64,000 bases of DNA from Octopus vulgaris (lineage: Eukaryota), in NCBI GenBank assembly GCA_951406725.2, contig OX597823.1, forward strand, positions 47,616,001 to 47,680,000, in the 5' to 3' direction. The notes below the pieces were generated by a model, which saw only the letters and a list, made by a program, of their open reading frames with translations, had not been told where the DNA came from and ran no database searches. Shown here piece by piece: positions 10,142 to 64,000 of this stretch (the first letter of the stretch is position 1; every line of letters begins with the position of its first letter). A program made the translations under genes and the position numbers.

Positions 10142-10915
10142 AAATGCAGTTCATTTCAGAACCATACATGTTATTACTACACAATTTAAGGTGGCAAGGT
10201 GGCAGAAATGTTAAGATGCCAGCAACATGCAGTTCACTTCAGAATCAAACATCGTTATTACTACACAATTTAAGGTAGCAAACTGGTAGAAACATTAAAA
10301 TGCCAGGTAAAATGTAGTTCATTTCAGAAGCAAACATGTCACTATTACCACACAATTTAAAGCGGCAAGCTAGGAGAAACATTAAATTGCCAGGTAAAAT
10401 GCAGTTCACCTCAGAATCAAACATGTCGTTATTACTACACAATTTAAGGTAGCAAGCTGGCAGAACGTTAACATGCCAGGTAAAATGCAGTTCATCTCAG
10501 AATCAAACATGTCGTTATTATGTGATTTAAGGTGGTAAGCTGGCAGAAACATTAAATCGCCAGGTAAAATGCAGTTCACCTCAGAATCAAACATGTCATT
10601 ATTACTACACAATTTAAGGTAGCAAACTGGTAGAAACATTAAAACGCCAGGTAAAATGTAGTTCATTTCAGAAGCAAACATGTCATTATTACCACACAAT
10701 TTAAGGTGGCAAGCTGGCAGAACGTTAACATGCCAGGTAAAATGCAGTTCATCTCAGAATCAAACATGTCGTTATTATGTGATTTAAGGTGGTAAGCTGG
10801 CAGAAACATTAAATCGCCAGGTAAAATGCAGTTCACCTCAGAATCAAACATGTCGTTATTACTACACAATTTAAGGTAGTAAGCTGGCAGAAATGTTAAA
10901 ATGCCAGGTAAAATG
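10142..10915 (+). repeat. Minisatellite of about 86 bp (about 9 units) built from a SINE 5' end plus flank
   Basis: Unit AAATGCAGTTCAYYTCAGAATCAAACATGTCGTTATTACTACACAATTTAAGGTRGYAAGCTGGCAGAAACATTAAA..GCCAGGTA. The last unit continues into a full SINE. Confidence 0.95.
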
Positions 10916-11312
10916 CTTAGTGGCATTGTGTCTGTCTTTACATTCTACATTTAAATTTTACGAAGGTCAACTTTGCCTTTTGTCCTTTCGGGGTTTATAA
11001 AATCAGTACCTGTTGAGCACTGGGGTTGAAGTAATTGACTTACACCTCCCCCAAATTTGTTGGCCTGGTGCTGAAATTCAAAGTCATTATTACTACACAA
11101 TTCAAGGCTGTGAGCTGGCAGAACCATTGACACACCAGGCAAAATGCTTAGTGATATATCGTCCTCCTTTATGTTCTGAATTGAAATTCCGTGATGGTCA
11201 ACTTTGCCTTTCATCCATTTTGATAAAATAAGTACCAGTTGAGCACAGGGGTCAATGTAATAGATTTACCCCTTATTCCAAAATTGTTAGCCTCGTACCA
11301 ACATTCAAAACC
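10873..11312 (+). mobile_element. Two tandem SINEs (family B, head GGYGGYRAGCTGGCAGAA)
   Basis: Both carry GGTCAACTTTGCCTTT..ATAAGTACCAGTTGAGCAC.GGGGT and a GCCTYGTRCC tail. They are separated and followed by CATTRTTACTACACAA. Confidence 0.85.
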
Positions 11313-21660: not shown

Positions 21661-23600
21661 CTAGAAGCTTGCTTTCCAGTGTGCAATGCCAAACGGCTCC
21701 GATAGGTGGCCGTTTACTTTGACCAATAAATAGGTGCCACTGTGCATTGCAGCGATCCAGCCTCTGTAAACGGGTCCGAAACCGCTTGCTTTCCAGACGG
21801 CTTCCAAGTAGCCATGGTCGACCCTATCGAATGCTTTTGATTGATCCAAATTGATGAGAACATCCCCGAAGCCGGCTGTGGTCCCAGCCCTCTCTATGAT
21901 GTATCGCATAAGGTGGGGGTTGTCGCGGATAAACCAGCTCGGGATTACGCATGTTTGTGCTTCTCCGACCAGGCTACCGACAACAAACGCTAACCTTTTC
22001 GCTAACACCTTGGCCAAAACCTTAAATTCTGTGTTTAGCAGCAAATATGACATGAATACAGAATTAGTAGCGAAGATCATCAAAATCGGGCGATCCGCGA
22101 CTTGTGCAATCGCTCATCACCTCCCAAATTTCAGCGGCTGTTATCGGCCTCTCACATAACCTCATGTCAGCTGCTGAGAGCTGCGGCAAGCTGTCCAAGT
22201 ACGAACTTTAGTCCAGTACCGTCGTTGACTCTTCGCCTTCTCCAGACAGTCGCGCGAAGTGCTGCTGAAAAGTCACACACATCTGCGCAGAGTCGCGTAG
22301 CACGCGCCCATCCCGATCCGTCAAAGACCTGATCGTGTTTTTGATTCCACGTCGTGTCTCCACTGTTCGAGCGAACGGGCCTTAGCTCTAACAACGCAAC
22401 CTTCATGTTTCGCTTCGAATAAACGATCAAGAGTCATTCTCGCCGCTAGCACATCGGTCGCAATGCTCTTTTTAATCGCCTGTTCTAATTTGCTAACTAG
22501 TTCACCCTCTAATCTAGAGGGTGAACTAGTTCACCCAGCTTCTGTCGGGGCATAGACGACCACCAATCTAAGGGCGCCACTTTCGCTACCATTCAATTCT
22601 AAGACCACCAACCTACCGCCCGGATCTAAGATCATTGCCTTTACTTCGAGATCTAAGGATTTTCAGAATAGCACTGCTACACCACCAGACAGACCACATG
22701 ATGAGAATATCTCATAGTCATCGAATATGGGTGCTAATGCTTGCACATTAGAAATCCTTATCTCGCTAATTGCAGCCACATCTAAATCGACCGACCTGAG
22801 GTTGTTTAGCAAATTACCTTTCTTCCAAGCTGACTCCAGGCTACGAACATTCACACACCTTACTCTGAAAACAACCATGTTTATCAGAGAAATAAATAGA
22901 AGGTCACTTACCTTAAATTTTGAGAGGGTCGGCTGATTCAGCTGTCTCGTCTGACACATTAGCATTAATGAAGGGCCTTCCTAAAGTCCTCTTAAAATTC
23001 TTAAGTTCGTGTCGGGAGTTTATGGTGTATCTATGTCGGCCGCCTGTAGGGATGGTCTGGCGTTGCTTGTTTCCACTGCTTCAGTTGTTGGTGCCATTGT
23101 GGTGATGGGATTCCGTTGTGGAAAGTTATGCTTTAACGGCTGTTGCTGCACTGATTGTTGTTGCAGCTTTTGGCCTTCTTGAGGTGGTAGTGGTAGCTCG
23201 TTTCTCGAGCTCCATTTTGTGGATTTTGTAGGCAGCCGACCTTCAAATGGGCGTTAGACCCACAAGTGTAGCACCTTGCTCCGTTGAGCAGCTCTATAAG
23301 GTCGGGGACCTTGTCCAGGGATTTCGGTTTTATCTGGATCAAAATCTCCAACTCGATTCCGGATCAGTTCTCCTTCCGATATTTTTTCATTTCTAGAAGC
23401 GAATCCGAGCCTTCGACCACAGCGCAAACAACCAATTACCAAATGTCTAATTCTGGTGGCACTATTTCAACTTTCACCACTCGCCGTCTAAGGTATGTGG
23501 GAAAATAATCTGCCGCTTTCAAAACAAAAACAAAAAAACGATATCAAAACTACCAAACTGCAAAGCGGCAGGACCAGACGGAATTCAAGGCTACTGGCTC
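21661..23600 (-). mobile_element. Decayed, internally deleted Tx1/L1-clade LINE (ORF1 knuckle, APE endonuclease and RT remnants)
   Basis: Minus-strand translations. ORF1: YFPTYLRRRVVKVEIVPPELD and RCYTCGSNAHLKVGC. Endonuclease: NVRSL..LDVAAISE..SGGVAVLF..DPGGRLVVLE..VVYAPT. RT: LLNTEFKVLAKVLAKRL..EAQTCVIP..LDQSKAFDRVDHGYL..VKVNGHLSEPF. Stops and deletions throughout. Confidence 0.9.
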
Positions 23601-51614: not shown

Positions 51615-51836
51615 ATATACATATGTTATAATTTAGAACAAACAGTAAAAGGTTTTCATTATAGTACTCGGAGTTTAGAATGCTGGAGTGAAGAGCTACA
51701 ATACATTCTCATCAACTATTAATAGCAACAAATATAATGAATATATGTTAAATATAAGGGAAGTAACTCTAATAGGTGGTAAACGAAAAAAGAAAAAGAT
51801 AAAAAACACTATAAAAATATATAAAATATATATATA

Positions 51837-52376
51837 TCATTATATATATAAAACTGAGAATGTGTGTGTGTGTCTGTCTGTCTGTGTGTTTCCCTAAAAC
51901 TTGAGAATTACACAACCAATTTCATTCAAATTTTACACATGCCTTACTTAGGGTCCGAGGAGTGTCATCGGCAAAAAAAATGTTCAACTTCTTGCCTAGA
52001 GCAAGCCCATAGCAATATCATATCTTCTCCACTATTTCAGTATTACGTGTTAAAAGTGAAACAAAAACATTTCTCTATTTTATGTCAGATACTTTCACTT
52101 TAACAATAAAAATAATAATAACAATTGAATTATATGTAGTAAGTATTAATTAAAATCAAACTAAAGTATAATATAATCGTAACATAACAAAAGTAAAAAT
52201 AGCAATTGGTATAAAATTGCATCAATGACTTGAACTTGAATGAGTGGTTTCACATGAATGGGAATAAATTAAGAATAAAATTAGCGTGCAGAAATGGAAT
52301 AGTCCAGATGGATAATAGAAAATTAAATTAAAGAAAAGACTATTATCTATAAAGTATAGAATGTAGAGAAAAAAGG
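51837..52376 (+). mobile_element. Helitron-like 5' end immediately upstream of the array (no 3' end seen)
   Basis: A|TCATTATATATATAAAACTGAGAATGTGTG..GTCTGTCTG..CCAATTTCATTCAAATTTTACAC resembles the 5' end at 40966. Confidence 0.5.
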
Positions 52377-52558
52377 ACGTGGTTTTTTCGGCTCTGTGTT
52401 TTTTGCTCTCTGTGAAATTCGGTAAAAAGAAAAAAGAACAAAAAGTGAATGGTTGTTGGTGTAAAATTTTGAACATAGTTGATGAGGTTTCGCGTCTCAC
52501 TGGTTCTGCGCGTTACACTTTTTCGGTTCGGGAGGCCGTTTCTCGGCCGGAGGCGACT

Positions 52559-53887
52559 ATGAGCCGCCTCCATCAAGCGGAGGAGATGGAAGGGAGAATT
52601 TACTCTGAAATTTCGACGGAAGTATCGACATCTGAGGAGGAGTTGGCGGTGAAAAAGATGGAAGGCACCTACGCAGGTGTAACGAAGAAGTCAACGGAAA
52701 GAGAGATAGACTTGGCTAAGTTGGCGGGCCTCCAGGAATTTGTGAAGGAGGACGAGAACGGTGAAGTTGAGCTGCTGCATCCAGTAGGGTGCGGAGACTG
52801 GTTCCATCGTAGAACCATTAAATATATAGTATTTATGAATGGAGGTAGAAAGATGGAAGTAATCAACATGGAAGCAATTGAAGAGGCTCTCAAGCAGACA
52901 GGAGAGGAAATTGTGTACATGACAAAAGGATTACAATACGGAACGATAACGGTGCAATTTAAAAGCGAAAAAGCAGCCAGGAATGTAGCAGCCAAGGTGG
53001 TGAGTACAGAAAAGATTTACTTGTTACCCTCGTATCTGAATAGGCGGACAACTAGAATTAGGGTGGAGGGAATACCTCCACACCTAGAGGGCGAATTAAT
53101 AACGGCTGCGGTTATAAAAGGAAATGAAGATAAAGTGGACATCCTCCACGCCATTATGAAGTATGAAGGCGTGAGAGGTGCCACACTAGTTATGAACATT
53201 CAAGCGGAGGCGGATGTTATAGAGAGGATTACGGACAGCATAAAAACTGGAAATATTATTATGAGAGTGTGGGTGGAGGGTAGGGCGCCCAGGTGCTACA
53301 AGTGTGGCCAAAGGGGTCACATAAGAGCCTACTGCCCTCCCCCACCAAAGGAAAAAGAAAAGGAAAGCGTTGAGGAAGCCTCGGGAGAGGAAGAAAATAA
53401 ACAGAAACAAACAGAGAAGGAAACGACAGAAGAAGAGGAGATGCAACAAGAGTGGAAAGAAGCGGGAACAAAGAGAAAAAGAAGGAAAAAGAAAAACTGT
53501 GCGAAGCCCCAACCCACCCCGACACCACCCATACCCTTGGAGTCCCATCCTTCCCCTGCAAACAGTAATTCCACCCACTCCCCGCCTACAAGAAGAATAA
53601 AAACAGACACACAGAGCAAAGAAAGTCCCAAGACCCATTTTTTATTTGTTATACATGGGAGAGACGTACAAAACGTTAAAAAACTGGTGTTAACCAAGTG
53701 GTACGAACACGAAGAGTGGAGCTACACGGCTGTGGATGGTGATGATACGGGTATATTGGCGACAAGGTTAGAGGAAGAGGGTGTGTGTTGGAAGTCAGTG
53801 GAAATGAAAGATGAATGGATAGAGAGGGCTAAAAGAAAAACGAATGTTGTGATGGTTAAAACAGGAATACTAATTGAAAATGGGTGA
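52559..53887 (+). CDS. Array copy 1: 442-aa LINE ORF1p-like nucleic-acid-binding protein with CCHC zinc knuckle (intact)
   Basis: ATG at 52559 to TGA ending at 53887. CX2CX4HX4C knuckle RCYKCGQRGHIRAYC at 53294-53335, preceded by VEGRAPR. An RRM-like segment GTITVQFKSEKAA lies upstream, and an acidic/basic/Pro-rich linker follows the knuckle. Confidence 0.8.
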   Translation: MSRLHQAEEMEGRIYSEISTEVSTSEEELAVKKMEGTYAGVTKKSTEREIDLAKLAGLQEFVKEDENGEVELLHPVGCGDWFHRRTIKYIVFMNGGRKMEVINMEAIEEALKQTGEEIVYMTKGLQYGTITVQFKSEKAARNVAAKVVSTEKIYLLPSYLNRRTTRIRVEGIPPHLEGELITAAVIKGNEDKVDILHAIMKYEGVRGATLVMNIQAEADVIERITDSIKTGNIIMRVWVEGRAPRCYKCGQRGHIRAYCPPPPKEKEKESVEEASGEEENKQKQTEKETTEEEEMQQEWKEAGTKRKRRKKKNCAKPQPTPTPPIPLESHPSPANSNSTHSPPTRRIKTDTQSKESPKTHFLFVIHGRDVQNVKKLVLTKWYEHEEWSYTAVDGDDTGILATRLEEEGVCWKSVEMKDEWIERAKRKTNVVMVKTGILIENG

Positions 53888-54232
53888 AGAAGGACAGATA
53901 AGTGATGCTGGCGGATGGGGCCGTCGGTATCGCTCTCATATATCATTTTCATATTCCATTTTGCTCATATATATGTAATTGTGATGTTCCATGTCCCCAT
54001 GTCTTGTAATGTCCCCCTCTTCGTTGGCCCCTTGTGGGTAATAAAAAATCACGTGGTTTTTTCGGCTCTGTGTTTTTTGCTCTCTGTGAAATTCGGTAAA
54101 AAGAAAAAAGAACAAAAAGTGAATGGTTGTTGGTGTAAAATTTTGAACATAGTTGATGAGGTTTCGCGTCTCACTGGTTCTGCGCGTTACACTTTTTCGG
54201 TTCGGGAGGCCGTTTCTCGGCCGGAGGCGACT

Positions 54233-55562
54233 ATGAGCCGCCTCCATCAAGCGGAGGAGATGGAAGGGAGAATTTACTCTGAAATTTCGACGGAAGTATC
54301 GACATCTGAGGAGGAGTTGGCGGTGAAAAAGATGGAAGGCACCTACGCAGGTGTAACGAAGAAGTCAACGGAAAGAGAGATAGACTTGGCTAAGTTGGCG
54401 GGCCTCCAGGAATTTGTGAAGGAGGACGAGAACGGTGAAGTTGAGCTGCTGCATCCAGTAGGGTGCGGAGACTGGTTCCATCGTAGAACCATTAAATATA
54501 AAGTATTTATGAATGGAGGTAGAAAGATGGAAGTAATTAACATGGAAGCAATTGAAGAGGCTCTTAAGCAGACGGGAGAGGAAATTGTGTACATGACGAA
54601 AGGATTACAATACGGAACCATAACGGTGCAATTTAAAAGTGAAAAAGCAGCCAGGAATGTAGCAGCCAAGGTGGTGAGTACAGAAAAGATTTACTTGTTA
54701 CCCTCGTATCTGAATAGGCGGACAACTAGAATTAGGGTGGAGGGAATACCTCCACACCTAGAGGGCGAAGTAATAACGGCTGCGGTTATAAAAGGAAATG
54801 AGGATAAGGTGGACATCCTCCACGCCAGTATGAAGTATGAAGGCGTGAGAGGTGCCACACTGGTTATGAACATTCAAACGGAGGCGGATGTTATAGAGAA
54901 GATTACGGACAGCATAAAGACTGGAAATATTATTATGAGAGTGTGGGTGGAGGGTAGGGCGCCCAGGTGCTACAAGTGTGGCCAAAGGGGTCACATAAGA
55001 GCCTACTGCCCTCCCCCACCAAAGGAAAAAAGAAAAGGAAAGCGTTGAGGAAGCCTCGGGAGAGGAAGAAAATAAACAGAAACAAACAGAGAAGGAAACG
55101 ACAGAAGAAGAGGAGATGCAACAAGAGTGGAAAGAAGCGGGAACAAAGAGAAAAAGAAGGAAAAAGAAAAACTGTGCGAAGCCCCAACCCACCCCGACAC
55201 CACCCATACCCTTGGAGTCCCATCCTTCCCCTGCAAACAGTAATTCCACCCACTCCCCGCCTACAAGAAGAATAAAAACAGACACACAGAGCAAAGAAAG
55301 TCCCAAGACCCATTTTTTATTTGTTATACATGGGAGAGACGTACAAAACGTTAAAAAACTGGTGTTAACCAAGTGGTACGAACACGAAGATTGGAGCTAC
55401 ACGGCTGTGGATGGTGATGATACGGGTATATTGGCGACAAGGTTAGAGGAAGAGGGTGTGTGTTGGAAGTCAGTGGAAATGAAAGATGAATGGATAGAGA
55501 GGGCTAAAAGAAAAACGAATGTTGTGATGGGTAAAACAGGAATACTAATTGAAAATGGGTGA
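54233..55562 (+). pseudogene. Array copy 2 ORF1-like, +1 frameshift in an A-run
   Basis: A6 instead of A5 at 55026-55031, otherwise full length. May be a homopolymer sequencing error. Confidence 0.7.
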
Positions 55563-55906
55563 AGAAGGACAGATAAGTGATGCTGGCGGATGGGGCCGTC
55601 GGTATCGCTCTCATATATCATTTTCATATTCCATTTTGCTCATATATATGTAATTGTGATGTTCCATGTCCCCATGTCTTGTAATGTCCCCCTCTTCGTT
55701 GGCCCCTTGTGGGTAATAAAAAATCACGTGGTTTTTCGGCTCTGTGTTTTTTGCTCTCTGTGAAATTCGGTAAAAAGAAAAAAGAACAAAAAGTGAATGG
55801 TTGTTGGTGTAAAATTTTGAACATAGTTGATGAGGTTTCGCGTCTCACTGGTTCTGCGCGTTACACTTTTTCGGTTCGGGAGGCCGTTTCTCGGCCGGAG
55901 GCGACT

Positions 55907-57235
55907 ATGAGCCGCCTCCATCAAGCGGAGGAGATGGAAGGGAGAATTTACTCTGAAATTTCGACGGAAGTATCGACATCTGAGGAGGAGTTGGCGGTGA
56001 AAAAGATGGAAGGCACCTACGCAGGTGTAACGAAGAAGTCAACGGAAAGAGAGATAGACTTGGCTAAGTTGGCGGGCCTCCAGGAGTTTGTGAAGGAGGA
56101 CGAGAACGGTGAAGTCGAGCTGCTGCATCCAGTAGGGCGCGGAGACTGGTTCCATCGTAGAACCATTAAATATAAAGTATTTATGAATGGAGGTAGAAAG
56201 ATGGAAGTAATCAACATGGAAGCAATTGAAGAGGCTCTCAAGCAGACAGGAGAGGAAATTGTGTACATGACAAAAGGATTACAATACGGAACGATAACGG
56301 TGCAATTTAAAAGCGAAAAAGCAGCCAGGAATGTAGCAGCCAAGGTGGTGAGTACAGAAAAGATTTACTTGTTACCCTCGTATCTGAATAGGCGGACAAC
56401 TAGAATTAGGGTGGAGGGAATACCTCCACACCTAGAGGGCGAATTAATAACGGCTGCGGTTATAAAAGGAAATGAAGATAAAGTGGACATCCTCCACGCC
56501 ATTATGAAGTATGAAGGCGTGAGAGGTGCCACACTAGTTATGAACGTTCAAACGGAGGCGGATGTTATAGAGAAGATTACGGACAGCATAAAGACTGGAA
56601 ATATTATTATGAGAGTGTGGGTGGAGGGTAGGGCGCCCAGGTGCTACAAGTGTGGCCAAAGGGGTCACATAAGAGCCTACTGCCCTCCCCCACCAAAGGA
56701 AAAAGAAAAGGAAAGCGTTGAGGAAGCCTCGGGAGAGGAAGAAAATAAACAGAAACAAACAGAGAAGGAAACGACAGAAGAAGAGGAGATGCAACAAGAG
56801 TGGAAAGAAGCGGGAACAAAGAGAAAAAGAAGGAAAAAGAAAAACTGTGCGAAGCCCCAACCCACCCCGACACCACCCATACCCTTGGAGTCCCATCCTT
56901 CCCCTGCAAACAGTAATTCCACCCACTCCCCGCCTACAAGAAGAATAAAAACAGACACACAGAGCAAAGAAAGTCCCAAGACCCATTTTTTATTTGTTAT
57001 ACATGGGAGAGACGTACAAAACGTTAAAAAACTGGTGTTAACCAAGTGGTACGAACACGAAGATTGGAGCTACACGGCTGTGGATGGTGATGATACGGGT
57101 ATATTGGCGACAAGGTTAGAGGAAGAGGGTGTGTGTTGGAAGACAGTGGAAATGAAAGATGAATGGATAGAGAGGGCTAAAAGAAAAACGAATGTTGTGA
57201 TGGTTAAAACAGGAATACTAATTGAAAATGGGTGA
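55907..57235 (+). CDS. Array copy 3 ORF1-like zinc-knuckle protein, 442 aa (intact)
   Basis: 1329-bp open frame from the conserved ATG (MSRLHQ) to TGA. Confidence 0.8.
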   Translation: MSRLHQAEEMEGRIYSEISTEVSTSEEELAVKKMEGTYAGVTKKSTEREIDLAKLAGLQEFVKEDENGEVELLHPVGRGDWFHRRTIKYKVFMNGGRKMEVINMEAIEEALKQTGEEIVYMTKGLQYGTITVQFKSEKAARNVAAKVVSTEKIYLLPSYLNRRTTRIRVEGIPPHLEGELITAAVIKGNEDKVDILHAIMKYEGVRGATLVMNVQTEADVIEKITDSIKTGNIIMRVWVEGRAPRCYKCGQRGHIRAYCPPPPKEKEKESVEEASGEEENKQKQTEKETTEEEEMQQEWKEAGTKRKRRKKKNCAKPQPTPTPPIPLESHPSPANSNSTHSPPTRRIKTDTQSKESPKTHFLFVIHGRDVQNVKKLVLTKWYEHEDWSYTAVDGDDTGILATRLEEEGVCWKTVEMKDEWIERAKRKTNVVMVKTGILIENG

Positions 57236-57578
57236 AGAAGGACAGATAAGTGATGCTGGCGGATGGGGCCGTCGGTATCGCTCTCATATATCATTTTCAT
57301 ATTCCATTTTGCTCATATATATGTAATTGTGATGTTCCATGTCCCCATGTCTTGTAATGTCCCCCTCTTCGTTGGCCCCTTGTGGGTAATAAAAAATCAC
57401 GTGGTTTTTCGGCTCTGTGTTTTTTGCTCTCTGTGAAATTCGGTAAAAAGAAAAAAGAACAAAAAGTGAATGGTTGTTGGTGTAAAATTTTGAACATAGT
57501 TGATGAGGTTTCGCGTCTCACTGGTTCTGCGCGTTACACTTTTTCGGTTCGGGAGGCCGTTTTCGGCCGGAGGCGACT

Positions 57579-58907
57579 ATGAGCCGCCTCCATCAAGCGG
57601 AGGAGATGGAAGGGAGAATTTACTCTGAAATTTCGACGGAAGTATCGACATCTGAGGAGGAGTTGGCGGTGAAAAAGATGGAAGGCACCTACGCAGGTGT
57701 AACGAAGAAGTCAACGGAAAGAGAGATAGACTTGGCTAAGTTGGCGGGCCTCCAGGAATTTGTGAAGGAGGACGAGAACGGTGAAGTTGAGCTGCTGCAT
57801 CCAGTAGGGTGCGGAGACTGGTTCCATCGTAGAACCATTAAATATAAAGTATTTATGAATGGAGGTAGAAAGATGGAAGTAATTAACATGGAAGCAATTG
57901 AAGAGGCTCTTAAGCAGACGGGAGAGGAAATTGTGTACATGACGAAAGGATTACAATACGGAACCATAACGGTGCAATTTAAAAGTGAAAAAGCAGCCAG
58001 GAATGTAGCAGCCAAGGTGGTGAGTACAGAAAAGATTTACTTGTTACCCTCGTATCTGAATAGGCGGACAACTAGAATTAGGGTGGAGGGAATACCTCCA
58101 CACCTAGAGGGCGAAGTAATAACGGCTGCGGTTATAAAAGGAAATGAGGATAAGGTGGACATCCTCCACGCCAGTATGAAGTATGAAGGCGTGAGAGGTG
58201 CCACACTGGTTATGAACATTCAAACGGAGGCGGATGTTATAGAGAAGATTACGGACAGCATAAAGACTGGAAATATTATTATGAGAGTGTGGGTGGAGGG
58301 TAGGGCGCCCAGGTGCTACAAGTGTGGCCAAAGGGGTCACATAAGAGCCTACTGCCCTCCCCCACCAAAGGAAAAAGAAAAGGAAAGCGTTGAGGAAGCC
58401 TCGGGAGAGGAAGAAAATAAACAGAAACAAACAGAGAAGGAAACGACAGAAGAAGAGGAGACGCAACAAGAGTGGAAAGAAGCGGGAACAAAGAGAAAAA
58501 GAAGGAAAAAGAAAAACTGTGCGAAGCCCCAACCCACCCCGACACCACCCATACCCTTGGAGTCCCATCCTTCCCCTGCAAACAGTAATTCCACCCACTC
58601 CCCGCCTACAAGAAAAATAAAAACAGACACACAGAGCAAAGAAAGTCCCAAGACCCATTTTTTATTTGTTATACATGGGAAAGACATACAAAACGTTAAA
58701 AAACTGGTGTTAACCAAGTGGTACGAACACGAAGATTGGAGCTACACGGTTGTGGATAGTGATGATACGGGTATATTGGCGACAAGGTTAGAGGAAGAGG
58801 GTGTGTGTTGGAAGTCAGTGAAAATGAAAGATGAATGGAGAGAGAGGGCTAAAAGAAAAACGAATGTTGTGATAGGTGAAACAGGAATACAAATTGGAAA
58901 TGGGTGA
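57579..58907 (+). CDS. Array copy 4 ORF1-like zinc-knuckle protein, 442 aa (intact, variant C-terminus)
   Basis: ORF track 57579..58907. C-terminus VVIGETGIQIGNG rather than VVMVKTGILIENG. Confidence 0.8.
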   Translation: MSRLHQAEEMEGRIYSEISTEVSTSEEELAVKKMEGTYAGVTKKSTEREIDLAKLAGLQEFVKEDENGEVELLHPVGCGDWFHRRTIKYKVFMNGGRKMEVINMEAIEEALKQTGEEIVYMTKGLQYGTITVQFKSEKAARNVAAKVVSTEKIYLLPSYLNRRTTRIRVEGIPPHLEGEVITAAVIKGNEDKVDILHASMKYEGVRGATLVMNIQTEADVIEKITDSIKTGNIIMRVWVEGRAPRCYKCGQRGHIRAYCPPPPKEKEKESVEEASGEEENKQKQTEKETTEEEETQQEWKEAGTKRKRRKKKNCAKPQPTPTPPIPLESHPSPANSNSTHSPPTRKIKTDTQSKESPKTHFLFVIHGKDIQNVKKLVLTKWYEHEDWSYTVVDSDDTGILATRLEEEGVCWKSVKMKDEWRERAKRKTNVVIGETGIQIGNG

Positions 58908-59251
58908 AGAAGGACAGACAAGTGATGCTGGCGGATGGGGCCGTCGGTATCACTCTCATATATCATTTTTCATATTCCATTTTGCTCATATATATGTAAT
59001 TGTGATGTTCCATGTCCCCATGTCTTGTAATGTCCCCCTCTTCGTTGGCCCCTTGTGGGTAATAAAAAATCACGTGGTTTTTCGGCTCTGTGTTTTTTGC
59101 TCTCTGTGAAATTCGGTAAAAAGAAAAAAGAACAAAAAGTGAATGGTTGTTGGTGTAAAATTTTGAACATAGTTGATGAGGTTTCGCGTCTCACTGGTTC
59201 TGCGCGTTACACTTTTTCGGTTCGGGAGGCCGTTTTCGGCCGGAGGCGACT

Positions 59252-60578
59252 ATGAGCCGCCTCCATCAAGCGGAGGAGATGGAAGGGAGAATTTACTCTG
59301 AAATTTCGACGGAAGTATCGACATCTGAGGAGGAGTTGGCGGTGAAAAAGATGGAAGGCACCTACGCAGGTGTAACGAAGAAGTCAACGGAAAGAGAGAT
59401 AGACTTGGCTAAGTTGGCGGGCCTCCAGGAATTTGTGAAGGAGGACGAGAACGGTGAAGTTGAGCTGCTGCATCCAGTAGGGTGCGGAGACTGGTTCCAT
59501 CGTAGAACCATTAAATATAAAGTATTTATGAATGGAGGTAGAAAGATGGAAGTAATTAACATGGAAGCAATTGAAGAGGCTCTTAAGCAGACGGGAGAGG
59601 AAATTGTGTACATGACGAAAGGATTACAATACGGAACCATAACGGTGCAATTTAAAAGTGAAAAAGCAGCCAGGAATGTAGCAGCCAAGGTGGTGAGTAC
59701 AGAAAAGATTTACTTGTTACCCTCGTATCTGAATAGGCGGACAACTAGAATTAGGGTGGAGGGAATACCTCCACACCTAGAGGGCGAAGTAATAACGGCT
59801 GCGGTTATAAAAGGAAATGAGGATAAGGTGGACATCCTCCACGCCAGTATGAAGTATGAAGGCGTGAGAGGTGCCACACTGGTTATGAACATTCAAACGG
59901 AGGCGGATGTTATAGAGAAGATTACGGACAGCATAAAGACTGGAAATATTATTATGAGAGTGTGGGTGGAGGGTAGGGCGCCCAGGTGCTACAAGTGTGG
60001 CCAAAGGGGTCACATAAGAGCCTACTGCCCTCCCCACCAAAGGAAAAAGAAAAGGAAAGCGTTGAGGAAGCCTCGGGAGAGGAAGAAAATAAACAGAAAC
60101 AAACAGAGAAGGAAACGACAGAAGAAGAGGAGACGCAACAAGAGTGGAAAGAAGCGGGAACAAAGAGAAAAAGAAGGAAAAAGAAAAACTGTGCGAAGCC
60201 CCAACCCACCCCGACACCACCCATACCCTTGAGTCCCATCCTTCCCCTGCAAACAGTAATTCCACCCACTCCCCGCCTACAAGAAAAATAAAAACAGACA
60301 CACAGAGCAAAGAAAGTCCCAAGACCCATTTTTTATTTGTTATACATGGGAAAGACATACAAAACGTTAAAAAACTGGTGTTAACCAAGTGGTACGAACA
60401 CGAAGATTGGAGCTACACGGTTGTGGATAGTGATGATACGGGTATATTGGCGACAAGGTTAGAGGAAGAGGGTGTGTGTTGGAAGTCAGTGAAAATGAAA
60501 GATGAATGGATAGAGAGGGCTAAAAGAAAAACGAATGTTGTGATAGGTGAAACAGGAATACAAATTGGAAATGGGTGA
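59252..60578 (+). pseudogene. Array copy 5 ORF1-like, two 1-bp deletions
   Basis: C4 instead of C5 at 60032-60035 and G instead of GG at 60231. Both lie in homopolymers. Confidence 0.7.
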
Positions 60579-60923
60579 AGAAGGACAGACAAGTGATGCT
60601 GGCGGATGGGGCCGTCGGTATCACTCTCATATATCATTTTTCATATTCCATTTTGCTCATATATATGTAATTGTGATGTTCCATGTCCCCATGTCTTGTA
60701 ATGTCCCCCTCTTCGTTGGCCCCTTGTGGGTAATAAAAAATCACGTGGTTTTTCGGCTCTGTGTTTTTTGCTCTCTGTGAAATTCGGTAAAAAGAAAAAA
60801 GAACAAAAAGTGAATGGTTGTTGGTGTAAAATTTTGAACATAGTTGATGAGGTTTCGCGTCTCACTGGTTCTGCGCGTTACACTTTTTCGGTTCGGGAGG
60901 CCGTTTCTCGGCCGGAGGCGACT

Positions 60924-62253
60924 ATGAGCCGCCTCCATCAAGCGGAGGAGATGGAAGGGAGAATTTACTCTGAAATTTCGACGGAAGTATCGACATCTGA
61001 GGAGGAGTTGGCGGTGAAAAAGATGGAAGGCACCTACGCAGGTGTAACGAAGAAGTCAACGGAAAGAGAGATAGACTTGGCTAAGTTGGCGGGCCTCCAG
61101 GAATTTGTGAAGGAGGACGAGAACGGTGAAGTTGAGCTGCTGCATCCAGTAGGGTGCGGAGACTGGTTCCATCGTAGAACCATTAAATATAAAGTATTTA
61201 TGAATGGAGGTAGAAAGATGGAAGTAATTAACATGGAAGCAATTGAAGAGGCTCTTAAGCAGACGGGAGAGGAAATTGTGTACATGACGAAAGGATTACA
61301 ATACGGAACCATAACGGTGCAATTTAAAAGTGAAAAAGCAGCCAGGAATGTAGCAGCCAAGGTGGTGAGTACAGAAAAGATTTACTTGTTACCCTCGTAT
61401 CTGAATAGGCGGACAACTAGAATTAGGGTGGAGGGAATACCTCCACACCTAGAGGGCGAAGTAATAACGGCTGCGGTTATAAAAGGAAATGAGGATAAGG
61501 TGGACATCCTCCACGCCAGTATGAAGTATGAAGGCGTGAGAGGTGCCACACTGGTTATGAACATTCAAACGGAGGCGGATGTTATAGAGAAGATTACGGA
61601 CAGCATAAAGACTGGAAATATTATTATGAGAGTGTGGGTGGAGGGTAGGGCGCCCAGGTGCTACAAGTGTGGCCAAAGGGGTCACATAAGAGCCTACTGC
61701 CCTCCCCCACCAAAGGAAAAAAGAAAAGGAAAGCGTTGAGGAAGCCTCGGGAGAGGAAGAAAATAAACAGAAACAAACAGAGAAGGAAACGACAGAAGAA
61801 GAGGAGATGCAACAAGAGTGGAAAGAAGCGGGAACAAAGAGAAAAAGAAGGAAAAAGAAAAACTGTGCGAAGCCCCAACCCACCCCGACACCACCCATAC
61901 CCTTGGAGTCCCATCCTTCCCCTGCAAACAGTAATACCACCCACTCCCCGCCTACAAGAAAAATAAAAACAGACACACAGAGCAAAGAAAGTCCCAAGAC
62001 CCATTTTTTATTTGTTATACATGGGAAAGACATACAAAACGTTAAAAAACTGGTGTTAACCAAGTGGTACGAACACGAAGATTGGAGCTACACGGTTGTG
62101 GATAGTGATGATACGGGTATATTGGCGACAAGGTTAGAGGAAGAGGGTGTGTGTTGGAAGTCAGTGAAAATGAAAGATGAATGGATAGAGAGGGCTAAAA
62201 GAAAAACGAATGTTGTGATAGGTGAAACAGGAATACAAATTGGAAATGGGTGA
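60924..62253 (+). pseudogene. Array copy 6 ORF1-like, +1 frameshift in the same A-run as copy 2
   Basis: A6 at 61717-61722. Confidence 0.7.
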
Positions 62254-62599
62254 AGAAGGACAGACAAGTGATGCTGGCGGATGGGGCCGTCGGTATCACT
62301 CTCATATATCATTTTTCATATTCCATTTTGCTCATATATATGTAATTGTGATGTTCCATGTCCCCATGTCTTGTAATGTCCCCCTCTTCGTTGGCCCCTT
62401 GTGGGTAATAAAAAATCACGTGGTTTTTTCGGCTCTGTGTTTTTTGCTCTCTGTGGAATTCGGTAAAAAGAAAAAAGAACAAAAAGTGAATGGTTGTTGG
62501 TGTAAAATTTTGAACATAGTTGATGAGGTTTCGCGTCTCACTGGTTCTGCGCGTTACACTTTTTCGGTTCGGGAGGCCGTTTCTCGGCCGGAGGCGACT

Positions 62600-63928
62600 A
62601 TGAGCCGCCTCCATCAAGCGGAGGAGATGGAAGGGAGAATTTACTCTGAAATTTCGACGGAAGTATCGACATCTGAGGAGGAGTTGGCGGTGAAAAAGAT
62701 GGAAGGCACCTACGCAGGTGTAACGAAGAAGTCAACGGAAAGAGAGATAGACTTGGCTAAGTTGGCGGGCCTCCAGGAATTTGTGAAGGAGGACGAGAAC
62801 GGTGAAGTTGAGCTGCTGCATCCAGTAGGGTGCGGAGACTGGTTCCATCGTAGAACCATTAAATATAAAGTATTTATGAATGGAGGTAGAAAGATGGAAG
62901 TAATTAACATGGAAGCAATTGAAGAGGCTCTTAAGCAGACGGGAGAGGAAATTGTGTACATGACGAAAGGATTACAATACGGAACCATAACGGTGCAATT
63001 TAAAAGTGAAAAAGCAGCCAGGAATGTAGCAGCCAAGGTGGTGAGTACAGAAAAGATTTACTTGTTACCCTCGTATCTGAATAGGCGGACAACTAGAATT
63101 AGGGTGGAGGGAATACCTCCACACCTAGAGGGCGAAGTAATAACGGCTGCGGTTATAAAAGGAAATGAGGATGAGGTGGACATCCTCCACGCCAGTATGA
63201 AGTATGAAGGCGTGAGAGGTGCCACACTGGTTATGAACATTCAAACGGAGACGGATGTTATAGAGAAGATTACGGACAGCATAAAGACTGGAAATATTAT
63301 TATGAGAGTGTGGGTGGAGGGTAGGGCGCCCAGGTGCTACAAGTGTGGCCAAAGGGGTCACATAAGAGCCTACTGCCCTCCCCCACCAAAGGAAAAAGAA
63401 AAGGAAAGCGTTGAGGAAGTCTCGGGAGAGGAAGAAAATAAACAGAAACAAACAGAGAAGGAAACGACAGAAGAAGAGGAGATGCAACAAGAGTGGAAAG
63501 AAGCGGGAACAAAGAGAAAAAGAAGGAAAAAGAAAAACTGTGCGAAGCCCCAACCCACCCCGACACCACCCATACCCTTGGAGTCCCATCCTTCCCCTGC
63601 AAACAGTAATTCCACCCACTCCCCGCCTACAAGAAGAATAAAAACAGACACACAGAGCAAAGAAAGTCCCAAGACCCATTTTTTATTTGTTATACATGGG
63701 AGAGACGTACAAAACGTTAAAAAACTGGTGTTAACCAAGTGGTACGAACACGAAGATTGGAGCTACACGGCTGTGGATGGTGATGATACGGGTATATTGG
63801 CGACAAGGTTAGAGGAAGAGGGTGTGTGTTGGAAGTCAGTGGAAATGAAAGATGAATGGATAGAGAGGGCTAAAAGAAAAACGAATGTTGTGATGGTTAA
63901 AACAGGAATACTAATTGAAAATGGGTGA
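62600..63928 (+). CDS. Array copy 7 ORF1-like zinc-knuckle protein, 442 aa (intact)
   Basis: 1329-bp open frame from the conserved ATG to TGA. Confidence 0.8.
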   Translation: MSRLHQAEEMEGRIYSEISTEVSTSEEELAVKKMEGTYAGVTKKSTEREIDLAKLAGLQEFVKEDENGEVELLHPVGCGDWFHRRTIKYKVFMNGGRKMEVINMEAIEEALKQTGEEIVYMTKGLQYGTITVQFKSEKAARNVAAKVVSTEKIYLLPSYLNRRTTRIRVEGIPPHLEGEVITAAVIKGNEDEVDILHASMKYEGVRGATLVMNIQTETDVIEKITDSIKTGNIIMRVWVEGRAPRCYKCGQRGHIRAYCPPPPKEKEKESVEEVSGEEENKQKQTEKETTEEEEMQQEWKEAGTKRKRRKKKNCAKPQPTPTPPIPLESHPSPANSNSTHSPPTRRIKTDTQSKESPKTHFLFVIHGRDVQNVKKLVLTKWYEHEDWSYTAVDGDDTGILATRLEEEGVCWKSVEMKDEWIERAKRKTNVVMVKTGILIENG

Positions 63929-64000
63929 AGAAGGACAGATAAGTGATGCTGGCGGATGGGGCCGTCGGTATCGCTCTCATATATCATTTTCATATTCCAT

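Follow-up and report, generated by a model that had tools for sequence, protein, structure and literature searches.

The right-hand part of the window (the whole 64,000 nt stretch of Octopus vulgaris contig OX597823.1 analysed here) carries seven head-to-tail units of 1671–1675 bp, with pairwise identities of 98.09–99.94% within the window (Table 1). As the original prediction had it, these are units of ~1.67 kb, each with a single CCHC-type ORF of 442 aa that is intact in units 1, 3, 4 and 7 according to the ORF list. The frameshifts in the remaining units are due, as assembled, to one additional A within an A-run (units 2 and 6) or to two missing single bases (unit 5). A tblastn search of nt 52376–64000 with ORF2 of the partner LINE (described below) gave no match at E ≤ 1, in agreement with the claim that the units lack endonuclease (EN) and reverse transcriptase (RT). 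The AATAAA plus A-run at the end of the unit is a fixed terminus, AATAAAAAATCA, and not a variable poly(A) tail. The left edge of the array, which the original prediction had placed at an apparent transcript boundary, is an insertion point within a dispersed host repeat.

Table 1. Features of the array and its left flank (positions in the window).
Feature	Position	Strand	Basis or remark
Host repeat H, 5' half (5' TC, CTGT microsatellite)	51837..52375	+	repeat matches, termini read by eye
Element 5' terminus doubling as regenerated target	52376..52388	+	junction comparison
Unit 1 (family A, ORF1-only element)	52378..54051	+	unit alignment
ORF1 of unit 1, 442 aa, intact	52559..53887	+	ORF list, domain search, fold prediction
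3' tail common to families A, B, C, D and the autonomous LINE	54004..54051	+	tail alignment
Unit 2	54052..55726	+	ORF from 54233, frameshifted
Unit 3	55727..57399	+	ORF 55907–57235, intact
Unit 4	57400..59072	+	ORF 57579–58907, intact; opens 4-unit block (units 4–7)
Unit 5	59073..60743	+	ORF from 59252, frameshifted
Unit 6	60744..62418	+	ORF from 60924, frameshifted
Unit 7, cut by window end	62419..64000	+	ORF 62600–63928, intact

The right boundary, which the original prediction had left to be found, lies ~32.7 kb past the window, where the assembled array ends in a full LINE. The array in the window thus forms the 5' end of a train that spans 44.3 kb and contains 24 elements: 20 ORF1-only A/B units, three members of a third ORF1-only family (D) and one full APE-RT LINE, in the order units 1–7, seven more A, then B, A, B, A', A'', B, D, D, D and LINE. 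The train interrupts H, a Helitron-like repeat of ~1.0 kb, at one site: the 5' half of H precedes the 24 elements, and the 3' half (hairpin, CTAG end) resumes after them at G000:C10:47,712,694. Outside the window, and so missed by the original prediction, were the Helitron-like target repeat, the autonomous LINE that closes the train, the further ORF1-only families and the copies with A>G hypermutation described below.

Non-autonomous Helitrons have a 5' TC and a 3' CTAG with a subterminal hairpin, and insert between A and T. H has ends of this type, with A before TC at 51836–51838 and, at locus L133, a hairpin and CTAG followed by T (read by eye in a few copies). There are 243 candidate copies of H, with at least 40 scored matches at 96–100%, and 16 of 30 fetched copies are empty, running straight into the 3' half. 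The LINE, D and many A/B copies occupy the same position of H. Of 38 regions chosen because they resemble A, 33 are flanked by H or adjoin a LINE 5' end; site specificity is nevertheless partial, since H and LINE are both absent from the other five, one of them a long array on C5, and the target sites of ten divergent relatives did not match H.

All of 30 LINE 3' ends abut a 6-nt motif, ACATGG in 28 cases and ACACGG or ATATGG otherwise, and the sequence past them is H in 24, another LINE or D head in five and elsewhere in one. The motif is recreated at junctions, before LINE and D by a 12–14-nt duplication, and for A/B by the element's own GGTCGTG- or GGTCGCG-T-run head; the CGTGG-T-run motif of the 5' terminus is also found after internal 3' ends. 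Target-derived pieces of H (18–67 nt) lie between elements, and these spacers match the outer junction, while 9–12 target bases are missing and element heads are seamless. In the eight trains with both junctions parseable, the junction variant is common to the outer and first inner junctions in five (permutation p = 0.004) and differs in three. Flanking duplications, which the original prediction had suggested looking for, were found as direct repeats of 13–43 nt in seven of the ten divergent relatives, and duplications also flank two of four non-H arrays.

Genome-wide, similar trains and solo copies were found on many contigs (at least 150 scored matches, 12144 candidate protein matches), so the question of dispersed versus tandem copies is answered by both, with solo copies and mixed trains alongside arrays. 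Train composition differs from one train to the next, the LINE usually being 3'-most. Family A haplotypes are common to different chromosomes, while blocks are duplicated locally.

The ORF1 protein is predicted to fold into two RRM domains (about residues 77–240) followed by a CCHC knuckle (residues 245–260; Pfam E = 0.0012, just below the curated cut-off) and a low-confidence C-terminal part. With ORF1p only and no EN/RT, the unit has the make-up of a half-LINE, and its predicted RRM-RRM-CCHC architecture is type I as defined in PMC5203782. HAL1 proper was considered and rejected, as there was no Pfam match to Transposase_22 (the L1 type II ORF1). A full HMMER search with the ORF returned 253 relatives and a word-indexed search none at E ≤ 0.001; a PDB sequence search with the ORF1 alignment returned mostly zinc knuckles, and the fold search generic RRMs, with no L1 ORF1p among the matches listed. 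The similarity to LINE ORF1 expected by the original prediction is present, at 37% identity over 203 aa with the partner LINE (E = 1e-42). The ORF1s of A/B, C and D are only 28–37% identical to each other and to LINE ORF1, so none of these families arose recently by deletion from this LINE. The ORF1 tree gave no resolved sister relation to the LINE (unit–LINE identity 34–37%), and judging from these sequences a helper other than this LINE is possible. The ORF1 core is under purifying selection in elements that lack ORF2, with dN/dS of 0.09–0.20 between unedited A subfamilies (ORFs of at least 400 aa).

ORF2 of the LINE, open for 1131 aa in this train, contains Exo_endo_phos, RVT_1 and zf-RVT domains. 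This combination of APE endonuclease, L1-related RT and C-terminal zinc motif is that of the Tx1 clade, and the best solved relative is human L1 ORF2p (E = 4e-65, versus 5e-26 for R2). The spacing of the CCHC residues and the way it aligns with the A core mark its ORF1 as type I, and the 3' junctions above show its target preference. No named Tx1 element occurs among the 120 homologues listed, and the partner is therefore termed Tx1-like. The available text of PMC13282606 reports 13 recently active L1-Tx1 families in O. vulgaris and does not describe such trains. The last ~45 nt of the unit (1628–1672/74) match LINE 3' ends at 84–89%, and this shared tail is likely the RT recognition signal. 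The five families' 3' tails gave no common MFE structure. LINE ORF2 was absent from inside the element in all ten divergent relatives.

The most surprising part is the apparently edited genomic copies. Among 162 elements of 1.4–2.2 kb with three other-locus neighbours, ten are hypermutated, with 323 A>G against 13 T>C changes, and none shows the reverse bias. The A>G clusters lie on the sense strand and, within a train, affect individual elements only. Between the core of one such copy and that of its neighbour there are 62 non-synonymous differences. A 5' G is depleted at the A>G sites (29/322) and a 3' G enriched (126/323). The same neighbour-base pattern characterises ADAR, some retroviruses are known to show A>G hypermutation, and this animal group is known for heavy RNA editing. 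No A>G excess was seen in 30 copies of H (14 A>G versus 11 T>C) or in LINE copies (4 versus 2), the latter having been chosen as near-identical, which excludes edited ones. Clustering on the sense strand together with a neighbour-base bias is what ADAR-edited retrocopies should show, and the clusters are likely ADAR-type RNA editing written back into the genome. The literature searched, which covered few subscription journals, yielded no paper on ADAR-edited genomic retroelement copies, and the available text of PMC2873906 discusses G>A as the editing of genomes, and A>G at the level of RNA. The A>G bias in element copies requires an RNA step. The flanking duplications and strand-specific A>G changes point to RNA-mediated insertion, and the unit has the duplications, shared tail and A>G signature expected of a half-LINE inserted in this way.

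From these comparisons it is probable that the ORF1-only trains at one site of H were copied from RNA by the EN/RT of a Tx1-like LINE and re-inserted at the regenerated junction, with long runs block-duplicated. The supposition that the unit is a non-LTR element with ORF1 alone, which is akin to a Tx1-like LINE and inserts beside itself, is thereby supported, and trans-mobilisation by the co-resident LINE is likely. LINE ORF2 would recognise the shared ~45-nt tail, reverse transcription would be primed at a nick just before the (A)CRYG-like motif, and the next element would insert at the motif recreated by the previous junction. The 5' join might form by annealing to a resident homologous head or H-derived leader sequence, which would account for the seamless heads, the missing target bases and the H pieces. 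ORF1 would be required in cis to package its own RNA, and ADAR would edit the RNA ahead of reverse transcription. The contig sets of two presumed-RNA runs covered H far deeper than the unit, as did DNA runs (runs with small word shares were excluded), and because of this DNA-like excess they are uninformative on transcription.

Trains might alternatively arise in single events, with RT, on reaching the 5' end of an RNA, jumping to the 3' end of another, or with multi-unit read-through RNAs retrotransposed whole. The 3'-most position of most LINEs would fit, as would a spacer peculiar to the array at C2:158.83 Mb that turns up again within the C3 train, and an internal junction (about position 118) that recurs in four regions. 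No significant age gradient was seen along trains, as this route would allow: the 3' element was more diverged in 15 trains, less in eight and tied in five (p = 0.21; Spearman 0.13, p = 0.11), which favours neither direction of growth. Template jumping and 5' transduction have also been named for SINEU extensions in the available text of PMC4494074. Spacers that derive from the target and match the outer junction argue against it, however, as do the restriction of editing to single elements inside trains and the solo ORF1-only copies that fill H without a LINE (L101, L105, L107, L110 and L118). This route is unlikely to explain the trains, and is likely a contributor rather than the main route.

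It is considerably less likely that the 14-unit run stems mainly from one or two insertions amplified in tandem at the DNA level, by unequal crossover or gene conversion, into a coding satellite that may be partly assembly-inflated. Trains in which four families and the LINE are mixed would be unexplained, a head-to-tail joint is present in an independent DNA run, and unit 3 has no substitutions relative to a copy on another chromosome (G000:C8:~9.624 Mb) while the nearest copy in its own train differs by 0.6%. Amplification does explain some of the run and forms one component of the RNA-based explanation: units 4–7 differ from units 8–11, beyond the window, by 0–0.06%, the C8 run has a similar block repeat, and the exact A–A junction occurs 31 times at only five loci. 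The longest uniform runs were likely extended through local block duplication.

The original prediction also offered co-option, with a cluster of domesticated ORF1 genes that help or restrict the LINE on behalf of the host; this is now very improbable. The family is dispersed and mobile, lying inside a transposon, with solo copies, flanking duplications and mixed trains; there is no single conserved, immobile locus of the L1TD1 type, and the presumed-RNA runs carry no expression signal distinct from the DNA runs. In keeping with domestication are the purifying selection on the core, the many intact ORFs (at least 400 aa in 69 of 107 A-class elements) and the 14 non-synonymous and no synonymous changes between units 1 and 4 in the C-terminal part of the ORF; but selection during transposition yields the same dN/dS. 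Least credible is capture and spread of the elements as cargo by the Helitron-like host, since, for all the abundance and Helitron-type ends of H, every train differs in composition, copies with their own duplications exist outside H, and the A>G bias requires an RNA step and is not seen in the 30 H copies.

HAL1 elements are dispersed and poly(A)-tailed, and are not known to be site-specific. In Drosophila HeT-A/TART/TAHRE, an ORF1-only element forms head-to-tail arrays with an RT-bearing partner, but these are telomeric and added to chromosome ends, whereas the octopus units are interstitial and their sites, inside a repeat, would be cut by an endonuclease. As far as the available texts go, the ingredients have further parallels. 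TRE5-A.2 of Dictyostelium discoideum is ORF1-only, mobilised in trans by ORF2 of the full element TRE5-A.1, site-specific and found in tandems at occupied targets (PMC5391098), as is proposed for the A units. TRE5-A targets positions ~50 bp upstream of tRNA genes, while the octopus units target a sequence in the Helitron-like repeat, and three target loci gave no Rfam match. TRE5-A.2 is moreover a direct derivative of its helper, whereas octopus has at least three deeply diverged ORF1-only lineages with one apparent helper, and trains of up to 24 elements. Crocodilian Tx1-Mar and SINEU share one preferred site in a non-autonomous DNA transposon and, as in octopus, tandem insertions sandwich a TSD, 5' extensions derive from the target, and the target is both duplicated and truncated (PMC4494074). 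SINEU is short and non-coding, with snRNA heads and a Mariner target, whereas the octopus partners are very young elements that encode an ORF1 under selection and are arranged in multi-kb trains. Mammalian HAL1, of several origins, is likewise non-autonomous and encodes only ORF1p (PMC5753468), but derives from mammalian L1 with its type II ORF1, unlike the type I (RRM plus CCHC) protein of octopus. Xenopus Tx1L in Tx1D is a LINE targeted to a non-autonomous DNA transposon (cited in PMC4494074, whose available text mentions no ORF1-only partner or long trains for it). By this comparison each ingredient has a precedent in TRE5-A.2, HAL1 or Tx1-Mar/SINEU; for the combination none was found in the literature searched, which took in few subscription journals. 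Repbase, Dfam or the supplement or repeat library of PMC13282606 may hold consensus entries for these families.

Octopod databases list the unit ORFs among host genes; they should be classed as transposons instead. More tentatively, at somewhat less than an even chance, octopods would harbour a lasting guild of several ORF1-only lineages that share the RT of one site-specific LINE, their 5' heads serving as targets of that LINE, so that every insertion would seed another and HeT-A-like trains of tens of kilobases would grow inside a Helitron, while germline ADAR would hyper-edit their RNA and the edited copies would be fixed as a heritable, datable record of A-to-I editing of retrotransposons. 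The system is a natural setting in which to ask why an ORF1 is retained in cis when ORF2 is missing, and its EN/RT is young, intact and site-specific, with a short target. If the clusters are ADAR edits, at least 6% of the sampled copies (10/162) record germline hyper-editing of retroelement RNA, and ADAR restriction of LINE-type elements in the germline would become testable from genome sequence.

Seven units lie head to tail in the window, the first starting at nt 52378; they are 1671–1675 bp long and 98.09–99.94% identical to one another, in agreement with the original prediction of tandem units of about 1,674 bp. The 442-aa ORF is, as predicted, intact in copies 1, 3, 4 and 7, while single-base indels frameshift it in units 2, 5 and 6. 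The unit had been said to lack reverse transcriptase (RT), and ORF2 of the partner LINE, a full element with ORF1 and ORF2, finds no match anywhere in the array. The AATAAA/A-run described at the unit end stands as part of a constant terminus, AATAAAAAATCA, found on every unit, and not as a poly(A) tail. Elsewhere the window carries a degraded two-ORF relative of the LINE (ORF1 31% identical to family A, ORF2 pieces 41–50%) and a short-period tandem repeat.

The window units belong to family A and open a 44.3-kb train of 24 elements that continues beyond the right end of the window: 14 A, then B, A, B, A', A'', B, three D and a 5.26-kb LINE. Three other families, B, C and D, likewise encode ORF1 alone and are 1.75–1.8 kb in length, with identities to A in the ORF1 core of 59%, 31% and 28%, respectively; all four families share a 3' tail of about 45 nt with the LINE. 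In the train the LINE ORF2 is open (1131 aa); it has endonuclease, RT and zf-RVT domains, and its nearest solved structure is human L1 ORF2p. The LINE is called Tx1-like here, its clade having been assigned from architecture. The expected similarity of the unit protein to a LINE ORF1 was recovered (37% identity over 203 aa) with a LINE that adjoins related units. Units and LINE probably operate like TRE5-A.2 with TRE5-A.1 and SINEU with Tx1-Mar, and the unit can be classed as a HAL1-like half-LINE, yet is not HAL1 itself.

A full HMMER search with the unit ORF1 returned 253 relatives; seven of ten looked up could be named, all from Octopus species or Argonauta, which makes an octopod the likely host. 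Pfam places the CCHC knuckle at residues 245–260, and AlphaFold2 (95-row alignment) modelled about residues 51–260 with pLDDT mostly above 90. The top Foldseek match of the model was a two-RRM Sex-lethal structure (E = 1.3e-5), and alignment with the La RRM gave Z = 10.1 (VIA-align). With its predicted RRMs and CCHC knuckle, the protein is of the type I architecture, known from Tx1-clade elements (PMC5203782). Core dN/dS is 0.09–0.20 between unedited A subfamilies and 0.11–0.13 for A against B, a comparison in which dS approaches saturation; for pairs with very few changes the ratio is unstable, up to 0.6. The low core values indicate that ORF1 stays functional without ORF2, and its function is likely retained in cis. 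The C-terminal part, in contrast to the core, changes rapidly, and subfamilies have exchanged it; between units 1 and 4 (window 53345–53887 and 58365–58907) it shows 14 non-synonymous and no synonymous changes.

On its left the array is preceded by 540 bp that form the 5' half of H, a dispersed repeat of about 1 kb with Helitron-type ends, whose 3' half resumes directly past the terminal LINE of the train. Thirty H copies were fetched: 16 have no insertion, 11 (including the window) run into an A/B head, D follows in one and a likely truncated LINE in another, and the last is internally deleted; being the copies most like the window's H, they do not give a genome-wide rate. In exact searches, one empty-site pattern matched 73 times and one filled-junction pattern 34 times, and the reversed control patterns gave no match. 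ACATGG or a one-base variant directly follows the LINE 3' end in 30/30 cases examined, and the sequence beyond is H in 24, another LINE or D head in five and something else in one. In 38 regions selected for similarity to A, an H flank or neighbouring LINE head was present in 33 and neither in five. ORF1-only copies also occupy H without other elements. Other arrangements include an array outside H (spacer of about 40 nt, four-unit higher-order repeat) and LINE–LINE tandems joined by the duplicated target (L159, L162, L164, L168).

A duplicated target of 12–14 nt precedes LINE and D heads, so that insertion recreates the site. A/B heads start with GGTCGTG or GGTCGCG and a T-run, and inner junctions start inside that head. 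In 5/8 trains the outer-junction variant equals that of the first inner junction (p = 0.004; among these is a variant confined to one locus), as expected if a new element inserts at the resident's head and duplicates it. Some elements are separated by 18–67 nt of H-derived sequence, which suggests leaders or displaced nicks together with 5' joining guided by homology; the SINEU extensions (PMC4494074) offer a comparison. The age gradient along trains is not significant, and the 18-nt spacer peculiar to the array at C2:158.83 Mb recurs at a junction in a C3 train (L090/L091, G000:C3:~20.089 Mb); read-through or template jumping therefore probably contributes. In four regions (L093, L095, L117, L119) and in sequencing run X3, a 3' end joins about position 118 of the next leader, possibly a second nick site. 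Units 4–7 recur as units 8–11, and an identical copy of unit 3 lies on another chromosome, which argues for both local duplication and fresh insertion. The repeated block could instead reflect assembly inflation, but a head-to-tail joint is present in an independent DNA run.

In none of ten divergent relatives (53–71% amino-acid identity) does the element contain the LINE ORF2, although an RT fragment of unrelated type lies about 700 bp beyond the 3' end of one. Direct repeats of 13–43 nt flank seven, two of which resemble copies of one locus; of the others, two have no detectable 3' end and one has no repeat. For 162 elements the private substitutions were tallied, hypermutation being defined as at least 15 sense-strand A>G changes and at least four times as many as T>C. 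Ten elements qualified (pooled, 323 A>G versus 13 T>C), and none of the 162 had the reverse bias or a G>A cluster. The most uniform copy has A>G at 48/48 changes, and element 15 of the window's train at 16/18. The other 152 elements gave 315 A>G versus 162 T>C, and 30 copies of H gave 14 versus 11. ADAR prefers adenosines with G depleted 5' and enriched 3'; here G is rarer 5' of the changed A (29/322 versus about 31%) and commoner 3' (126/323 versus about 28%). From these sequence patterns, we read the clusters as probable A-to-I editing ahead of reverse transcription. About 940 bp of one B element are inversely duplicated, and read-through there would yield a long hairpin that might serve ADAR or a small-RNA pathway as substrate.

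Locations of features in the window and in genome contigs (G000; C10 holds the window); L numbers are fetched genomic regions
Feature	Location	Strand
A>G hypermutated copies, ADAR-like neighbours	G000:C10:73.267 Mb, C2:150.145 Mb, C8:37.45 Mb, C10:47,691,816-47,693,542, six more	sense
Inversely duplicated B element (L039/L040)	G000:C1:74,680,138-74,682,818	
Non-H array of 17 full units (L086-L089)	G000:C5:100.951-100.980 Mb	
Degraded two-ORF LINE relative	window 21679-23504	-
Period-87-bp tandem repeat, 9.1 copies	window 10142-10916	

Literature searches on such elements and on edited retrocopies turned up no description of this combination. The system stands out for its several coding ORF1-only lineages, the length of its trains, its Helitron-like target and its probably edited copies.
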